A stretch of 34,182 bases of DNA from a virus (Duplodnaviria; Caudoviricetes). The stretch is taken from positions 1 through 34,182 of the IMG/VR virus record IMGVR_UViG_3300037125_000003; one strand, 5' to 3'. This document shows positions 10,326-30,122 of this stretch, piece after piece (positions within the stretch are counted from its first letter, which is position 1; each line of letters starts with the position of its first letter). The translations under genes and the position numbers were made by a program. The notes beneath the pieces are model-generated. The model saw only the letters and a program-made list of their open reading frames with translations, did no database searches and had not been told where the DNA came from.

Positions 10326-11030
10326 TTATTCAGGCTTCCTGGCCACACAATAAATAAAATTTTCGTAAATAACTACCTTTTTACTACGATAGTGTATGTC
10401 GGTAAACCCTACCTCGAAAAGCCATTGTCTTATCGTAGCCTCTTTAAAAAACCACAAATGGTCAGGATTCCCTAAATCCGTATCATCAGGTATTAGCAAA
10501 TATAAATACCCGCCAGGATTCAGCGTCCTAAACATTTTCCGAAGCATAGCAGGGGCATCCTTAAAATGCTCAAGTACATGACCCGCAATTATATTGTCCC
10601 ATTTAAGGGTCTCTGATAAATTCTCATACGCTGTGTTATGTGTATACGGGGTATACGCCCCTTTTATATATTTACACGCCCAGGGGTCAAGCTCAAGAGC
10701 TTCGTACCTATACCCACGTCGTAAAAACATAGGAGCATATATACCAATACCAGCACCAATATCAAGGATTGTAGATTCCTCCGGTTTACCTATCGGTATC
10801 TTAAAACCTATTTCCTCAAGGACAAGCTCAAATTCCGCACACGTTTTTGTATGATGCGGAATACCCTGTGATTGCCCGTGTAAATCCTCAAGATAATAAT
10901 ACTGACTATTATGCTCATGCGGTTTATGTAAAGTGCATTTCCTTAACGACCTCGCGCCCTCACAGGTATAACAACGTTCTACCTGACAACCACAAGATAT
11001 AGTTTCTATCTTACCTTTGCATTGATGCAT
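10326..11030 (-). CDS. Class I SAM-dependent methyltransferase with Cys-rich N-terminus
   Basis: ILDIGAGIG motif I, HVLEHF, LNPGGYL. Start revised to ATG 11030 (GGAGG at 11038-11042). Confidence 0.85.
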   Translation of the reverse strand: MHQCKGKIETISCGCQVERCYTCEGARSLRKCTLHKPHEHNSQYYYLEDLHGQSQGIPHHTKTCAEFELVLEEIGFKIPIGKPEESTILDIGAGIGIYAPMFLRRGYRYEALELDPWACKYIKGAYTPYTHNTAYENLSETLKWDNIIAGHVLEHFKDAPAMLRKMFRTLNPGGYLYLLIPDDTDLGNPDHLWFFKEATIRQWLFEVGFTDIHYRSKKVVIYENFIYCVARKPE

Positions 11031-11031
11031 A

Positions 11032-12825
11032 TTACGCCCTCCTAAAATGTTTTGGTACATCCCACCTATCGGTAGTTAGGGGTTCACCTTTAATATACTT
11101 ACGTCCCTGATAAAAACACACTTTTTCACAAATATAATTAGTAACTTGAGACTCAAATTCCCCTGGTTTACGCATCACAGCCTCTAACCTGGGGCTTCTC
11201 CTACCTTCCCAATTCTCTTGGAAGTACCCATGAGGTATATGTATAACGTCGTAATCCCATATTGGTAAAGCTACTCTTTTATCTTCGGGAAATATATTAA
11301 ACCCGAACTCTTTATCATCATACTCAGCAGTTTGACTGTTTTCTGGATAAAGATATTTACGTCCCTGTAATGACGACGCCTTAACATTAAATAACTGAAA
11401 ATAACCAAAAGGTAAATACTCTATAGCATTCCCCCTACGTCCCTCTACCTCAGCTATCTCCCTGCTTGCATATTTTCTAAATAACTCATTTTTGGGTAAG
11501 CCCCTATCAAAATCTTTGAAAAAGTTTGGTATTAAACCAATATGAGCAGCACCCCAACGTCGAGTATAATAAAGACAGCCAGGATTAAGCACATTCTTAA
11601 ATATCTTATCCTCAAAATTTTCAGGAAGTATTATATCAGCGTCCATTAATAGCACCCAATCTTTAGGTTTTAAATATGCTAACCCGTCATTAATTGCTTT
11701 TCCTTTTGCAAATACCGCGCCCCCGCTATGTATCCTATTTGATATTATACATTCAGCCCCATGTTTCTTACAGACTTTTGGTGTATACTTATCTTTGTCG
11801 TCAGTAACTACTATAACACGGTCAGCATGTTTTACGTTATGTGGTAATGTCATATCTAAATAATCGTCGTAACCTACAGACACCATTAACATATCAAGTG
11901 ATTTAGGCTTTATAGTATCGTTTGTTCCCGATACACGCACCCCGTCACTGCCTTTTAAGTAAGGCTCGCAACTCTTATTTACTTGATAAGTTTCAGCGCT
12001 ATAAGAACTACAATCAAAAATATTAACTTTACCGTTAGCAACTTTTTTACTCCCTATTTTTTCTAATACCTTTTTCATTTTAGGAGATATTATATCTACC
12101 CCACTATTCGCTTGTGTCCCAGGTACAGGAAGACACGCGCTACATAATTCACACCATTCTAATTGATAACCAAAGTCTTTAGGTTCACGCTCCCACCAAC
12201 CCGGCTCAATTTTCCAGCCACCAGCGCCATTAAATAACATATCCATAGAAGCAGCTACCTCACAAAAGAAAGCACCTTTAGGCGTTATGCTTGAACTCCA
12301 TTCACGCTGTAACCAGCAATTATCACGTAATTTATAAAACTCATTGTCAGGAATACCAAGCTCTTTACGAGGCAATAGCAAAGCCATGTGAAGCCCGCTA
12401 TTTGTATGGTCGTTTATACATTGGTATCCAAATGAATCCTGTATAAGCTCATAATGTTTATAATAACCCAAACCCAGGCTTGACCACAAGCCTTTTTTAG
12501 AACCCATACTTGACAAATTATTATCCCTATGCTTGGAAAAATCAGGAATAGGGTTAAAGTCTTTACGTATCCTTTTCTCGCTAAAGACGCTATTAAAGTA
12601 TTTCACAAATCGGTCAAATTCAGGGTGTAAGGTTGGCTCACCGCCCATAATACCTATCATACCCTTATACCCTTTTAATGAATCTACAGCCCGTTTAAAG
12701 TCTTTGAACTCCATAAAAAAGGGTTTCTTATGATGACCTACAAATCTGGTACAATTACTACATCCATGAGGGCATAGGTTAGTAATCTCTATCTGTATTA
12801 CTTTCTGATTTTTAGGACTTAGCAT
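11032..12825 (-). CDS. Radical SAM - GT-A glycosyltransferase fusion protein
   Basis: CPHGCSNC (CxxxCxxC), GGEPTLHP, CELCSAC; second half KGKAINDG...LLMDADIILP (DxD). Confidence 0.85.
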   Translation of the reverse strand: MLSPKNQKVIQIEITNLCPHGCSNCTRFVGHHKKPFFMEFKDFKRAVDSLKGYKGMIGIMGGEPTLHPEFDRFVKYFNSVFSEKRIRKDFNPIPDFSKHRDNNLSSMGSKKGLWSSLGLGYYKHYELIQDSFGYQCINDHTNSGLHMALLLPRKELGIPDNEFYKLRDNCWLQREWSSSITPKGAFFCEVAASMDMLFNGAGGWKIEPGWWEREPKDFGYQLEWCELCSACLPVPGTQANSGVDIISPKMKKVLEKIGSKKVANGKVNIFDCSSYSAETYQVNKSCEPYLKGSDGVRVSGTNDTIKPKSLDMLMVSVGYDDYLDMTLPHNVKHADRVIVVTDDKDKYTPKVCKKHGAECIISNRIHSGGAVFAKGKAINDGLAYLKPKDWVLLMDADIILPENFEDKIFKNVLNPGCLYYTRRWGAAHIGLIPNFFKDFDRGLPKNELFRKYASREIAEVEGRRGNAIEYLPFGYFQLFNVKASSLQGRKYLYPENSQTAEYDDKEFGFNIFPEDKRVALPIWDYDVIHIPHGYFQENWEGRRSPRLEAVMRKPGEFESQVTNYICEKVCFYQGRKYIKGEPLTTDRWDVPKHFRRA

Positions 12826-13048
12826 TCCTTATTATACCCTTTGCATGCATAATAATATTTGTAAGCTGTTCTGACATCTTATTAAGTCTTACATGTATAC
12901 TCGCTGGTGAAGATATACCCTCATTAATCTTACGCCAACTCGCACAAGGTAAAGACTTTGAAACAAATAAAGGGTTCTGGTTCTCTTTAATAAATTCAAC
13001 ATCCTTTACTGTTAAATCAAAAAATTCAACATTCTTTTCTTTACTCAT
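12812..13048 (-). CDS. Hypothetical protein
   Basis: 78 aa; overlaps both neighbours (translational coupling). Confidence 0.6.
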   Translation of the reverse strand: MSKEKNVEFFDLTVKDVEFIKENQNPLFVSKSLPCASWRKINEGISSPASIHVRLNKMSEQLTNIIMHAKGIIRNAKS

Positions 13049-13635
13049 AACTTATACCCCGCACATCCTATATGCTTAATCTCTTTGCTTAACTTGTTAT
13101 CACAAAATACACTGTAACCAAGTTTACGCGCAGCCTCACAAAACAAATAGTCTTCACCCAAAAAGTCTTTGCCCCTCCACTCTACATTGAAATACGGAGC
13201 TTTCATTTTCTTAAAGACTTTCATATTTATAAGTAAACACCCCGTCGCTATAAACCCAACCTCTGTAATACTATCGTCGGAAGAATTTACAAGCTGCTCT
13301 AACTTATTCCTACATGTAGGTTTAAAGGGCGTGTTACGCGTTGGGTAATTACAACCTATAACGTCCATACCAGAATCTAACAAACGTATAATAACGTCTG
13401 CCGGAAACACCATGTCCGAATCAAGAAATAGCAGATAATCAACTTTAAACTTCAATGCCTTTAATACTGTTTCATGCCTACCCTTTTGTACTATCGACGA
13501 CTTTACATTAATAAGGATAATATCTATCTTATCCTTTGACAACATTGTGTAAGACATTAACCGTGCAAGCGACATAGCAAAATCCGCATGTACCATATCG
13601 CCTGACGGTACACCTATAGCAATTTTAATACTCAT
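13045..13635 (-). CDS. GT-A fold glycosyltransferase
   Basis: YLLFLDSDM (DxD), GCLLI..VF, GEDYLFC, HIG motifs; GGGAGG SD. Confidence 0.85.
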   Translation of the reverse strand: MSIKIAIGVPSGDMVHADFAMSLARLMSYTMLSKDKIDIILINVKSSIVQKGRHETVLKALKFKVDYLLFLDSDMVFPADVIIRLLDSGMDVIGCNYPTRNTPFKPTCRNKLEQLVNSSDDSITEVGFIATGCLLINMKVFKKMKAPYFNVEWRGKDFLGEDYLFCEAARKLGYSVFCDNKLSKEIKHIGCAGYKL

Positions 13636-27846: not shown

Positions 27847-28236
27847 ATGGATAAAAAAGATTTTCTTGAATTAAAAATAGGGCAAACTCTATTATTCAAA
27901 AATAAGGTGGTACGAATAAGAGCTTTATCTAATTTTACACAGGATGATGTTTCAGCTCCGAACTATTGCGTTATGTTTGATAATGGAAAAGGAAAAGAAA
28001 GCACCTTACATCAATGGGACGAAATACGCACACAGTGTAAACCTTTTAATGGTAAAGGTATCTTAGATACTGCCCTTATCATGGACGCATTAGGTAATGA
28101 CCAACTTTTAAAATATAACGAGGAATTAGGTTGTTTCGGTATAACCTATGTCCATGCTTTTTTAAATGAAGATAATGAAATTGTAGCAGAACATATCCCG
28201 TTAGGGGATTTATATAAATTTGAAAAAACAGATTGA
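27847..28236 (+). CDS. Hypothetical protein
   Basis: 129 aa; AGGGGG SD. Confidence 0.65.
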   Translation: MDKKDFLELKIGQTLLFKNKVVRIRALSNFTQDDVSAPNYCVMFDNGKGKESTLHQWDEIRTQCKPFNGKGILDTALIMDALGNDQLLKYNEELGCFGITYVHAFLNEDNEIVAEHIPLGDLYKFEKTD

Positions 28237-28261
28237 CAAGGTTTTATTTTATAAATATTAT
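28233..28261 (+). promoter_or_regulatory. Internal sigma70 promoter
   Basis: TTGACA-17 nt-TATTAT. Confidence 0.75.
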
Positions 28262-28297: not shown

Positions 28298-28654
28298 GTG
28301 AAAGAAATTAGAATAAATGACTCAAAATCTTATAAAGATTATTATGAGCAAACGGTATTAGAAGCCTTTAAAAGATTTTTTGGTGACTTAGTAAAGGTTC
28401 AAAGTTCAAGGTATACCATACAGAAAGGTACGGAAAACAGCGAATACGCAGTTTTTATAGTGTGTATTCTGGTAGAAAATAAATTTGAATATTACGTGCC
28501 TATAGATGTAATATCGGAAACATTTTTAGCTGCTCTTAACAAAAATAGCTTTTGGTTTACCGTAAATAACTTAATGCCTTATGCTGAAAATGCTAAAATA
28601 GAATTAATGAAATTAAAAGGGAGGGAATTAACGTGTCAGAAAAACAAAGATTAA
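28298..28654 (+). CDS. Hypothetical protein
   Basis: 118 aa; AGGAGG SD, GTG start. Confidence 0.7.
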   Translation: MKEIRINDSKSYKDYYEQTVLEAFKRFFGDLVKVQSSRYTIQKGTENSEYAVFIVCILVENKFEYYVPIDVISETFLAALNKNSFWFTVNNLMPYAENAKIELMKLKGRELTCQKNKD

Positions 28655-29271
28655 CAATTACCAGGGCTTTAAAAGAACTCAAACTTTTAGACGCTCGCAT
28701 TACCAAAAAGATAGGGTCTTTTCACCCTATGGGTCTTAAACAAAAACGTGCCGGCGAAATGGTACTTGATACTTTTAAAACTGTTAATGAATTTAACAGC
28801 GAAGTAAGTAAAGAGTATCAGTCTATTAACGACATAATCGAACGACGTAGGAAGCTCAAACAGGCTATAGCTATTTCAAATGCTACAACTAAAGTGACTA
28901 TAGCGGGTCAGGAAATGACTGTTATAGAGGCGCTAGAGTCTAAAACTACAGCCGGACATAAAAAACTGTTAATGGACAGAATGTCAGCAAGACTCAACGA
29001 AATGAATAGGCGCATAGCCTTACACCAGGATAAGTTAGACGCCAATGTAGATAAAATGATTGATACTAATTTATCTAAAGATAGAAAGGCTGATGAGGAA
29101 GAATACAAAAAGATAGTTGAACCTTTTATGGCTGATAACAAACTTACAAAGGTTGACCCTATCGACGTTGAAAAAGAGATAAAGAAAATTGAGGAATACC
29201 TTGAAATCTTTACCGCTGACGTAGATATTTGTTTAAGCGAAAGCAACTCAAAAACGGAGATTGAGATTTAA
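28633..29271 (+). CDS. Coiled-coil protein, DIP1984/DUF6847-like
   Basis: TITRALKELKLLDARI, KLKQAIAISNATTKV..TVIEAL, VD..LSESN.KTEIEI pattern; family recognised from memory, not searched. Confidence 0.65.
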   Translation: MSEKQRLTITRALKELKLLDARITKKIGSFHPMGLKQKRAGEMVLDTFKTVNEFNSEVSKEYQSINDIIERRRKLKQAIAISNATTKVTIAGQEMTVIEALESKTTAGHKKLLMDRMSARLNEMNRRIALHQDKLDANVDKMIDTNLSKDRKADEEEYKKIVEPFMADNKLTKVDPIDVEKEIKKIEEYLEIFTADVDICLSESNSKTEIEI

Positions 29272-29279
29272 TGTATAAC

Positions 29280-29635
29280 AGCTTCCATATACTACGAAAA
29301 CTTAAACTGTACTCCCTTTGGGCGGTAGGGGTTATTACCGCCTATAAAATAGTTATGCTAAACTATACAGCGTGTTGTAGGTTCAAATCCTACAATTCCC
29401 GCCATATAAACAGGGAATTTAGCTCAATGGTAGAGCATCTGCATATCGGAGCAGAGGGAACGCAACCCTTACATGAACGTTTAAAACGTAAAGTTTGTTT
29501 GGTAAAGTTTGTCCTGTCAAAATGTAACGCTGAAAATGTAAAGATTTTAGTTTATAGAAATCTTAGGGTACTGGTTAATAGTTTTGGTACAATGACTTTT
29601 GTTTTCCACTAAGCTGTAGTGTATGGAGGCTTTTT
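29280..29635 (+). ncRNA. ~350-nt structured ncRNA with permuted tRNA-like domain and periodic tract
   Basis: 16-bp closing stem 29280-29295 / 29616-29631 with two G-U pairs, then T5; internal 10-bp hairpin 29319-29344. Confidence 0.8.
29372..29455 (+). ncRNA. Circularly permuted tRNA-like element (T arm-acceptor 3' strand-CCA precedes acceptor 5' strand-D arm)
   Basis: GTAGG-TTCAAAT-CCTAC-AATTCCC-G-CCA, 8-nt linker, then GGGAATT-TA-GCTC-AATGGTA-GAGC-A-TCTGC-8nt-GCAGA. Confidence 0.85.
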
Positions 29636-29653
29636 ATTTAGGGAGGTGTCGGA

Positions 29654-29887
29654 GTGAGCTTTACAAATTGTAAAATAGTTATGTACGAGGTAATGGAAAC
29701 AAAAAAGAAAACAAGACAAAAACCAGCGTTTATTAAAATAGCAGTTGATGATGAATTTATAGATAAACTTCATGGCACTATGTTTGCTGGACTAAATGAC
29801 AAGTTACCTATGACTTGTTTAAGTTTGTGTTGGGACGAGCCACAAAAAGAAAGTAAAGAGGGTGTAAATGAAAAAACCAATAGATAA
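29654..29887 (+). CDS. Hypothetical protein
   Basis: GGAGGT SD, GTG start. Confidence 0.65.
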   Translation: MSFTNCKIVMYEVMETKKKTRQKPAFIKIAVDDEFIDKLHGTMFAGLNDKLPMTCLSLCWDEPQKESKEGVNEKTNR

Positions 29888-30122
29888 ATTATTTCAGAAA
29901 AGTTTTAAAGTTTATGAATGTCAGTATGAAAAAAAAAAAAAAAACTGCCAATTGTTAAAAGAAAAAGAATCAGAGCTTACCAAACTGAGGGACTTGGTTG
30001 AAGATGCAAGAGAACTGATAGATTACGTTGCTGGTAACGATAAACAGTATTCTATGGTTTTACATGCCAAAAACTGGCTTGATGACTATAAGGAGCTACA
30101 AGATGAAAAGACTAGAAGGTAA
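29868..30122 (+). CDS. Hypothetical protein containing an A16 run
   Basis: 84 aa; overlaps neighbours. Confidence 0.6.
   Translation: MKKPIDKLFQKSFKVYECQYEKKKKNCQLLKEKESELTKLRDLVEDARELIDYVAGNDKQYSMVLHAKNWLDDYKELQDEKTRR

Follow-up and report, generated by a model that had tools for sequence, protein, structure and literature searches.

Organization of the gene-RNA cassette

The window analysed here, 34,182 nucleotides long, is the entire linear virus record G000 (estimated completeness 80%), with head, connector and internal virion genes of podovirus type on the minus strand and early and replication genes on the plus strand. The locus under study comprises a gene for a 212-residue protein (the partner gene) and, behind it, a large non-coding RNA (the carrier) that contains a circularly permuted tRNA module (Table 1). 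A sigma70-like promoter candidate precedes, in this order, a 118-aa open reading frame (ORF), the partner gene and the RNA, and its support is the match to the consensus, the window holding 8 sigma70-like sites against 10.5 expected from shuffles. Parts of the 28300-30000 region were present in three wetland metagenome runs, none of the three recorded as RNA. Elsewhere in the window, a methyltransferase gene, a radical SAM-glycosyltransferase fusion and a second glycosyltransferase-like gene lie between the connector and head genes (10326-13635, minus strand) as a possible DNA or virion modification cluster, and a long A run within an 84-aa ORF (29929-29944) is a possible slippage or assembly-uncertain site.

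Table 1 Features of the cassette, with positions in the window.
Feature	Position	Strand	Remarks
Sigma70-like promoter candidate	28233..28261	+	11/12 consensus matches
Partner gene	28633..29271	+	212 aa, mostly helical; phrog_1491; distant DIP1984/3kdq fold
Carrier non-coding RNA	29281..29630	+	~350 nt, closed by P1
P1 5' strand and motif	29281..29300	+	P1 5' strand 29281-29295, ending in conserved CGAAAA motif 29295-29300
Pseudoknot (predicted)	29313..29343	+	29313-29316 with G run 29328-29331, loop of hairpin 29320-29343
Hairpin with UGCUAA-type loop	29350..29365	+	Recurs just 5' of the module in relatives
Alternative pairing	29364-29370/29439-29445		6/7 pairs
Anticodon-stem 3' strand equivalent (39-43) and variable loop (44-48)	29367..29376	+	5-nt variable loop; G46, U48
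T arm	29377..29393	+	5 bp, 7-nt T loop
Acceptor stem and closing segment	29394..29419	+	7 bp; G1-C72, G2-C71, G3-C70
Acceptor 3' strand	29394-29400	+
G73	29401	+
CCA	29402-29404	+
Linker	29405-29412	+	8 nt
RNase P site (predicted)	before 29413	+	Putative cleavage
Acceptor 5' strand	29413-29419	+
U8-A9	29420-29421	+
D arm	29422-29436	+	With U8-A9 and A26 spans 29420..29437; A14, A15, G18-G19, A21 present
Local hairpin or closing strand	29438..29455	+	5-bp hairpin 29438-29442/29451-29455 with 8-nt loop, or strand closing on 29368-29370
A-rich repeat track	29474..29561	+	Family period 7 nt, irregular in this copy
3' domain	29562..29613	+	Closing stem 29562-29566/29609-29613
P1 3' strand and RNA end	29616..29639	+	P1 3' strand 29616-29630, then U run 29631-29639, likely RNA end

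The label of phrog_1491, 'tail fiber protein', was unsupported by either the structure model or the fold search. The modelled partner protein (pLDDT 90.7) best matched DIP1984 (PDB 3kdq) with VIA Z 11.4, rmsd 5.5 and 150 aligned, against a next Z of 7.1 and for a query that is itself a helical protein; 3kdq was also the best Foldseek row (E 0.011) and the best PDB sequence row (E 0.011). The protein differs from DIP1984 in being ~60 residues longer and in having no match to the NF038048 or DUF6847 profiles; 7 of 75 relatives matched NF038048 weakly, and a DUF6847 cluster in the Atlas (0.86) is taken as a lead only. The net charge is near neutral (+1), with +9 in residues 1-90. No known RNA-binding domain was among the domains identified, and no nuclease or PADLOC family was matched.

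Relatives of the partner protein were found in 728 of 50,697 phage records, T5 included (T5.085), and among bacterial genomes, where the best 80 of 108 protein matches were used. The loci collected (labelled L###), from the best 80 matches per scan and with two scans centred on a module-rich clade, numbered 384 with the window; the 370 with at least 400 nt downstream formed 210 clusters. A locus scan based on a single protein gave no matches. Because the 111 flanking proteins were unrelated from locus to locus, we consider the gene and the RNA to form a unit. No neighbour conserved between loci suggests a pathway. An RNA-repair operon was discarded as a conserved neighbour (one RtcB and one T4-type RNA ligase among the 111 flanking proteins), as was SOS control, LexA-like boxes lying upstream in 1 of 210 clusters, the control level. 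Just upstream of the cassette in L035, within a tRNA cluster, lies a permuted tmRNA gene (RF04321; 3477-3857).

The ~340-600 nt behind the gene held no credible same-strand gene in 10 annotated loci examined; in the phage T5 record (L224; 43067-44143), T5.085, labelled tail fiber, is followed by a gap of ~440 nt. Among the 188 clusters with a 3' anchor, 146 had P1 paired at 9 or more of 10 positions (swapped controls: mean 6.6, maximum 12). These 146 carriers feature a CGAAAA/GGCUG junction; the 3' stem was fully paired (5/5) in 120 and a U run, the likely RNA end, was present in 69, while a CCC/GGG pseudoknot-like arrangement was seen in 88, an uncontrolled count. Autocorrelation of the repeat track peaked at 7, 14 and 21 nt, and the closing stem and the 3' stem covary across the sequences compared. 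No Rfam family matched the carrier in 17 loci searched at the gathering threshold or in 20 loci at E 0.5. A 113-aa ORF over the RNA (29271-29612) was taken as a chance frame since it has no Pfam or PHROG match and open frames of at least 100 aa cover only 4 of the 146 carriers. In L090 a second CGAAA-plus-pseudoknot start is nested in the first, possibly through internal duplication. The preliminary description had placed the module within a larger RNA, which these data support, but left unnamed the DIP1984-like upstream gene that is the RNA's cassette partner.

The permuted tRNA module and its relatives

The permuted tRNA of the window, which lies 105 nt downstream of the partner gene, is real. 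Direct inspection of the letters located the T arm, 7-bp acceptor, G-CCA, 8-nt linker and D arm, as well as the local stem with its 8-nt loop, exactly where they had been reported. The strict T-acceptor-D pattern occurred once in the window and in none of 1500 block-shuffled windows, a loose version giving 6 matches in 60 shuffles. Since neither ARAGORN nor the Rfam tRNA model found a normal tRNA in the window, the module is not the boundary between two adjacent tRNA genes. Elsewhere such boundaries do mimic the permuted topology, scoring up to ~43 bits with the permuted model and 61.8 bits for a near-duplicate tandem pair in L090, and matches in L019, L058 and L090 were dropped for this reason. 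Once the halves were rejoined in silico, as had been proposed, ARAGORN called a tRNA in both layouts (107.2 and 111.9); the window holds no normal-order cloverleaf with a 7-nt anticodon loop, a tRNA being recognised only after the halves are swapped.

Misassembly, raised in the preliminary description as a possible explanation, is unlikely and was rejected on the basis of contigs from two runs that cover the module without a joint. In run X1, possibly the source sample, a single contig spans 28849-30200, and in run X2, from another study, a contig over 29216-29512 differs in the differences listed only at the unpaired positions 29409 (linker) and 29450 (loop). An integration-site remnant was also rejected, none of the 51 window ORFs scanned being an integrase and the helices covarying.

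Folded alone, 29377-29436 adopts three arms (MFE frequency 0.65, z -3.54), and within the full RNA the pairing probabilities are 1.0 for the T helix, 0.96 for the acceptor helix and 0.49 for the D helix. By inspection, with numbering from general tRNA knowledge, the positions of the tRNA tertiary contacts are present: U8-A14-A21, A15-U48, G18/G19 with U55/C56, U54-A58, C13-G22-G46 and A9-U12-A23.

The segment that follows the D arm may form either of two structures: the local hairpin, preferred by energy, or closure on 29368-29370, preferred by the family. The 6/7 pairing that had been proposed to tether the module is present in the sequence, but it overlaps the hairpin 29350-29365, which leaves only ~3 of its pairs able to form alongside that hairpin. 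Canonical closure in the window has 3/5 pairs and clashes with the hairpin, whose loop motif recurs among relatives, whereas the local hairpin has a perfect stem, though an 8-nt loop, and is favoured by ~7 kcal/mol, tertiary terms excluded. Over 44 modules, anticodon-stem closure accounts for 181 of 220 pairs against 110 when shuffled; 33 modules close with at least 4/5 pairs in the canonical register, and in 8 the D arm is followed by a perfect local hairpin, several of these modules retaining a 7-nt anticodon loop and apparently joining the carrier through the variable arm. L172, the module most similar to that of the window in these segments, closes via the anticodon stem. We considered, and rejected, the idea that a hairpin just 5' of the module is a distinct anticodon-loop decoy: YU-GNN-AA hairpins were enriched (7/32 vs 0.0) along with RU-GNN-AA hairpins (5/32 vs 0.08), and the motif is thus a UGNNAA loop whose anticodon character is not clear. 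This hairpin, found in the window and in many relatives, could make a U-turn or T-loop-type tertiary contact.

The slot between the pseudoknot and the repeats held, by pattern-based detection in the 210 clusters, a permuted module in 44, a normal-order tRNA in 4, a T arm only in 9 and nothing detected in 153; because sampling was enriched for the module-rich clade, 44/210 is not a frequency. The T arm lies 76-189 nt after the stop codon. On inspection, the 'T arm only' group included permuted modules (L023, L027, L091), apparently normal-order ones (L206, L356) and a decayed module (L329), and model R1 detected the previously unseen modules of L027 and L091 at 65 and 62 bits. Slot labels changed 21 times on the protein tree against 40 when shuffled, and all slot states are represented among the proteins nearest to that of the window. 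Erosion is seen among close relatives: the CCA is lost in L318, acceptors are short in L229, L306 and L345, a T arm only persists in L307, L315 and L320, and L230 has no module; the close relatives of L039 and L047 similarly show CCA loss, shortened acceptors and T-arm-only remnants.

Other layouts also occupy the slot. L047 (4716-4830), L023 (4686-4800), L242, L243, L334 and L360 are permuted with a Leu/Ser-type D arm, a preserved anticodon hairpin and an apparent variable-arm join, and L047 and L023 also encode CCA and are nearly complete permuted tRNAs. Normal-order tRNA-like genes are found in L011 (4710-4782), L024, L092, L239, L206 and L356; annotation tools would call them tRNAs, and most have damaged acceptors or odd anticodon loops.

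All four tRNA helices covary, as judged from aligned modules. In 36 of the 44 modules, L047, L088, L242, L243, L334, L350, L355 and L360 being left out, most for having another layout, 95.1% of the cells were paired, 18 of 21 pairs showed two-sided changes and covariation reached 0.78 against 0.18 when shuffled and at most 0.14 when slid. The Levitt pair is G-C or A-U in 39 of 44 modules. The conservation of U8, G18-G19, T54 and C56 is circular, as the search required them. The T-stem sequence is free to vary, with two-sided changes in 4 of 5 T pairs and a YrlA-type stem in 2/44. A 7-bp acceptor is present in 30/44 modules (lacking in 14/44), G1-C72 in 20/44 and CCA in 6/44, or 7/47 with three added rows and 7/18 among long-loop modules. 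The seven CCA-bearing modules, from several separate branches, all combine G1-C72 and G2-C71 with a linker of 6 nt or longer. The CCA frequency, far above chance, fits both selection for processing and a recent tRNA origin. Since CCA is lost and acceptors are shortened among relatives, it is the elbow and not the 3' end that the family keeps.

Relation to YrlA and other structured RNAs

The YrlA-like topology suggested in the preliminary description was borne out. The module has the T arm, closed acceptor and D arm in the order of the YrlA permuted domain, together with its tertiary contacts, and shares with YrlA an anticodon-stem attachment in most relatives, a variable acceptor length, a 5'-3' closing stem with CGAA and the feasibility of RNase P cleavage and CCA in the 7-bp subtype. 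The only Rfam match over the module is a partial one to YrlA (RF02553; 28.9 bits, E 0.021, model 27-81 only), and 9 of 20 relatives' loci scored 25-42 bits, all short of the 69-bit cut-off. The carrier differs from YrlA in its length of ~350 nt, its predicted pseudoknot, 7-nt repeat track and 3' domain, its DIP1984-like helical partner in place of Ro60/Rsr, its encoded CCA, and a T stem that lacks the near-invariant sequence of YrlA; the module is moreover optional and exchangeable with a normal-order tRNA or with other permutation points.

The resemblance to Y RNA is real in the CGAA core of the closing stem, CGAA being a motif that matters for phage Ro60 binding (PMC12135203). This core occurs in 120 of 146 carriers, the anchor having partly required CGAA, and the full GNCGAAN0-1G 5' motif was matched in 3/146, the window having the CGAA core only. 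T5-like carriers (L004) match the full motif and have no tRNA module. In agreement with the earlier observation, no Ro60 gene was found in the 80%-complete record, and neither Ro60 nor TROVE lies within ~4 kb on the same strand in G000 (>4.5 kb on each side) or among the 111 flanking proteins. TROVE was found in none of the 13 near-complete module-bearing virus records and in 1/33 records; among the 43 cassette-bearing bacterial genomes it was present in 5 and not found in 38, four of the five being from one lineage (Sericytochromatia/Blackallbacteria) and three of those four having a module. Cassette genomes of this lineage with a TROVE protein are L118, L121, L124, L131 and L158, of which four have the module, and L095 and L096 carry the module with no TROVE match. 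The feature is not a stand-alone Y RNA, nor do we file it as YrlA despite its shape; it is a YrlA-like tRNA mimic on a different protein-RNA cassette that is apparently undescribed.

No description of the cassette was found in the literature searched by title and abstract opening, a scope outside which most subscription papers lie. 'PAIR/RypA', presumably the name of a gene-ncRNA pair, may or may not be this cassette. The sections seen of PMC7824862, PMC10383478 and 10.1101/2023.04.06.535777 do not describe it, and the YrlA match tables in the supplements of PMC4201824 could bear on prior notice.

In two-piece tmRNA (RF04321), as in the window copy, the acceptor 3' strand with its CCA lies ahead of the 5' strand, and the linker between them would be removed. 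The window copy differs in its full D arm, in G3-C70 at the place of the G3-U70 alanine determinant, as had been reported, and in having no tag frame and no ARAGORN or Rfam tmRNA match, so that the suggested comparison with permuted tmRNA models came out negative. GOLLD and ROOL are found near tRNAs or carry them. They too are large ornate phage RNAs (10.1101/2024.12.08.627333), from which the present carrier is distinguished by the absence of an Rfam match and by its fixed partner gene. Algal and archaeal circularly permuted tRNA genes share the closed acceptor loop and ends joined at the anticodon stem, but are circularised and reopened into working tRNAs (discussed in 10.1101/312249), whereas here the ends continue into a large RNA and leave no way to reconstitute an anticodon.

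Proposed role of the module and alternatives

Sequence comparison shows a gene-RNA cassette with a slot of interchangeable contents, covarying helices, a covarying Levitt pair and a 7-nt repeat track. Rather than working as a tRNA, the module likely imitates one as an optional element of an undescribed RNA-protein particle, and we assign a probability of about 0.5 to the reading in which it serves as an optional tRNA-elbow bait. The RNA would be co-transcribed with the partner gene from 28261 through 29630 and would bind copies of the partner protein, most likely via the repeat track and the CGAAAA/GGCUG junction. The module would fold into an L shape, its T and D loops may be modified by host enzymes as in YrlA, and the displayed elbow would draw host tRNA-handling proteins; acting as a decoy or docking site, it would allow the particle to engage, or to titrate away, a tRNA-binding protein of the infected host. 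YrlA effectors are themselves predicted to read the elbow (10.1101/312249). The decoy role put forward in the preliminary description is possible, but most modules lack the loop at which anticodon nucleases cleave.

The module probably originated from two adjacent or duplicated tRNA genes, as the tandem near-duplicates of L090 likely illustrate, some lineages having retained the CCA while it eroded elsewhere. The window copy belongs to the intact subtype that RNase P could cut by analogy with M. smegmatis YrlA, which has a 7-bp acceptor, is cleaved by RNase P and gains CCA, most YrlAs being uncut (PMC4201824); on this precedent the cleavage proposed earlier is plausible. For this copy only, at slightly less than even odds, the RNA would be processed into two pieces that P1 would keep together, through an RNase P cut ahead of 29413 and trimming by 3' exonucleases as far as the encoded CCA at 29404; the CCA end would remain uncharged, charging being improbable.

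A bolder version, which we offer tentatively and think rather less likely, would make the cassette a widespread and undescribed class of ribonucleoprotein, of phages and bacteria, in which the DIP1984-like protein polymerises on the 7-nt repeats and a plug-in slot shows repeatedly captured tRNA shapes; in this phage, host RNase P would open the plug-in, and the tethered, uncharged CCA end would trap host proteins that sense or cut tRNA. The captured shapes would come in several permutations, joined through the anticodon stem, variable arm or acceptor stem. The class would parallel Y RNA without Ro60 and would occur in phage T5 with no plug-in.

The elbow-bait reading has its best-surviving rival in a module that merely aids folding, stability or processing without an effector target, a captured tRNA fold shielding the carrier from nucleases or providing an RNase P site for its maturation, which we regard as unlikely though worth serious consideration. 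A slot that takes permuted, normal-order, partial or no tRNA would suit it, as would a T stem that is unconserved, unlike that of YrlA, and nuclease protection was raised as a role of the YrlA domain by Chen et al. (PMC4201824). Plain hairpins, however, would suffice for stability, the Levitt pair covaries (39/44), and a single slot repeatedly holds tRNA shapes that differ in origin and layout. The lack of a detected module in 153 of 210 clusters and its erosion among close relatives also fit a dispensable passenger.

That the two-piece RNA is aminoacylated at its CCA end and used, as two-piece tmRNA is, seems improbable. It would accommodate the perfect 7-bp acceptor, G1-C72 and RCCA of this copy, the exact placement of CCA in long-loop modules against a chance of 1 in 64 per module, and the 7-nt anticodon loops of L047, L023, L242 and L243. 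The CCA can equally be a vestige of tRNA origin, and it is lacking in 40 of 47 modules; with CCA in 7/47 and a 7-bp acceptor that is not conserved, charging is not the family's job, and the earlier proposal of an aminoacylated two-piece RNA is not supported as the conserved function. In this copy it is unlikely as well, there being no anticodon, G3-U70 or long variable arm and no tmRNA call.

The self-contained, two-part cassette in unrelated neighbourhoods might also suggest a protein-RNA toxin-antitoxin-like or autoregulatory pair whose repeats sequester the protein with the tRNA module as passenger. The combination of repeats with a predicted pseudoknot is reminiscent of type III antitoxins, but the RNA lies downstream, the repeats are of 7 nt, and the protein has no nuclease or PADLOC match, which makes this quite improbable. 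Least probable is a giant Y RNA binding, via its CGAA motif, a host or phage Ro60 encoded elsewhere: the CGAA-bearing closing stem, the weak YrlA scores, the ~20% of G000 that is missing and the TROVE lineage, three members of which have the module, speak for it, against the sub-threshold scores, the rarity of the full motif and of TROVE, and a length of ~350 nt compared with 80 to ~220 nt.

The effector of YrlA is an open question, and this family presents the tRNA elbow in the same way on a scaffold that is unrelated and has no Ro60. The role of the elbow can be tested directly, because close relatives differ naturally in having the module, lacking it or carrying it in another permutation. 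The carrier follows the gene in 728 deposited phage records, T5 included, and the contents of its slot document both the origin and the decay of permuted tRNA mimics.
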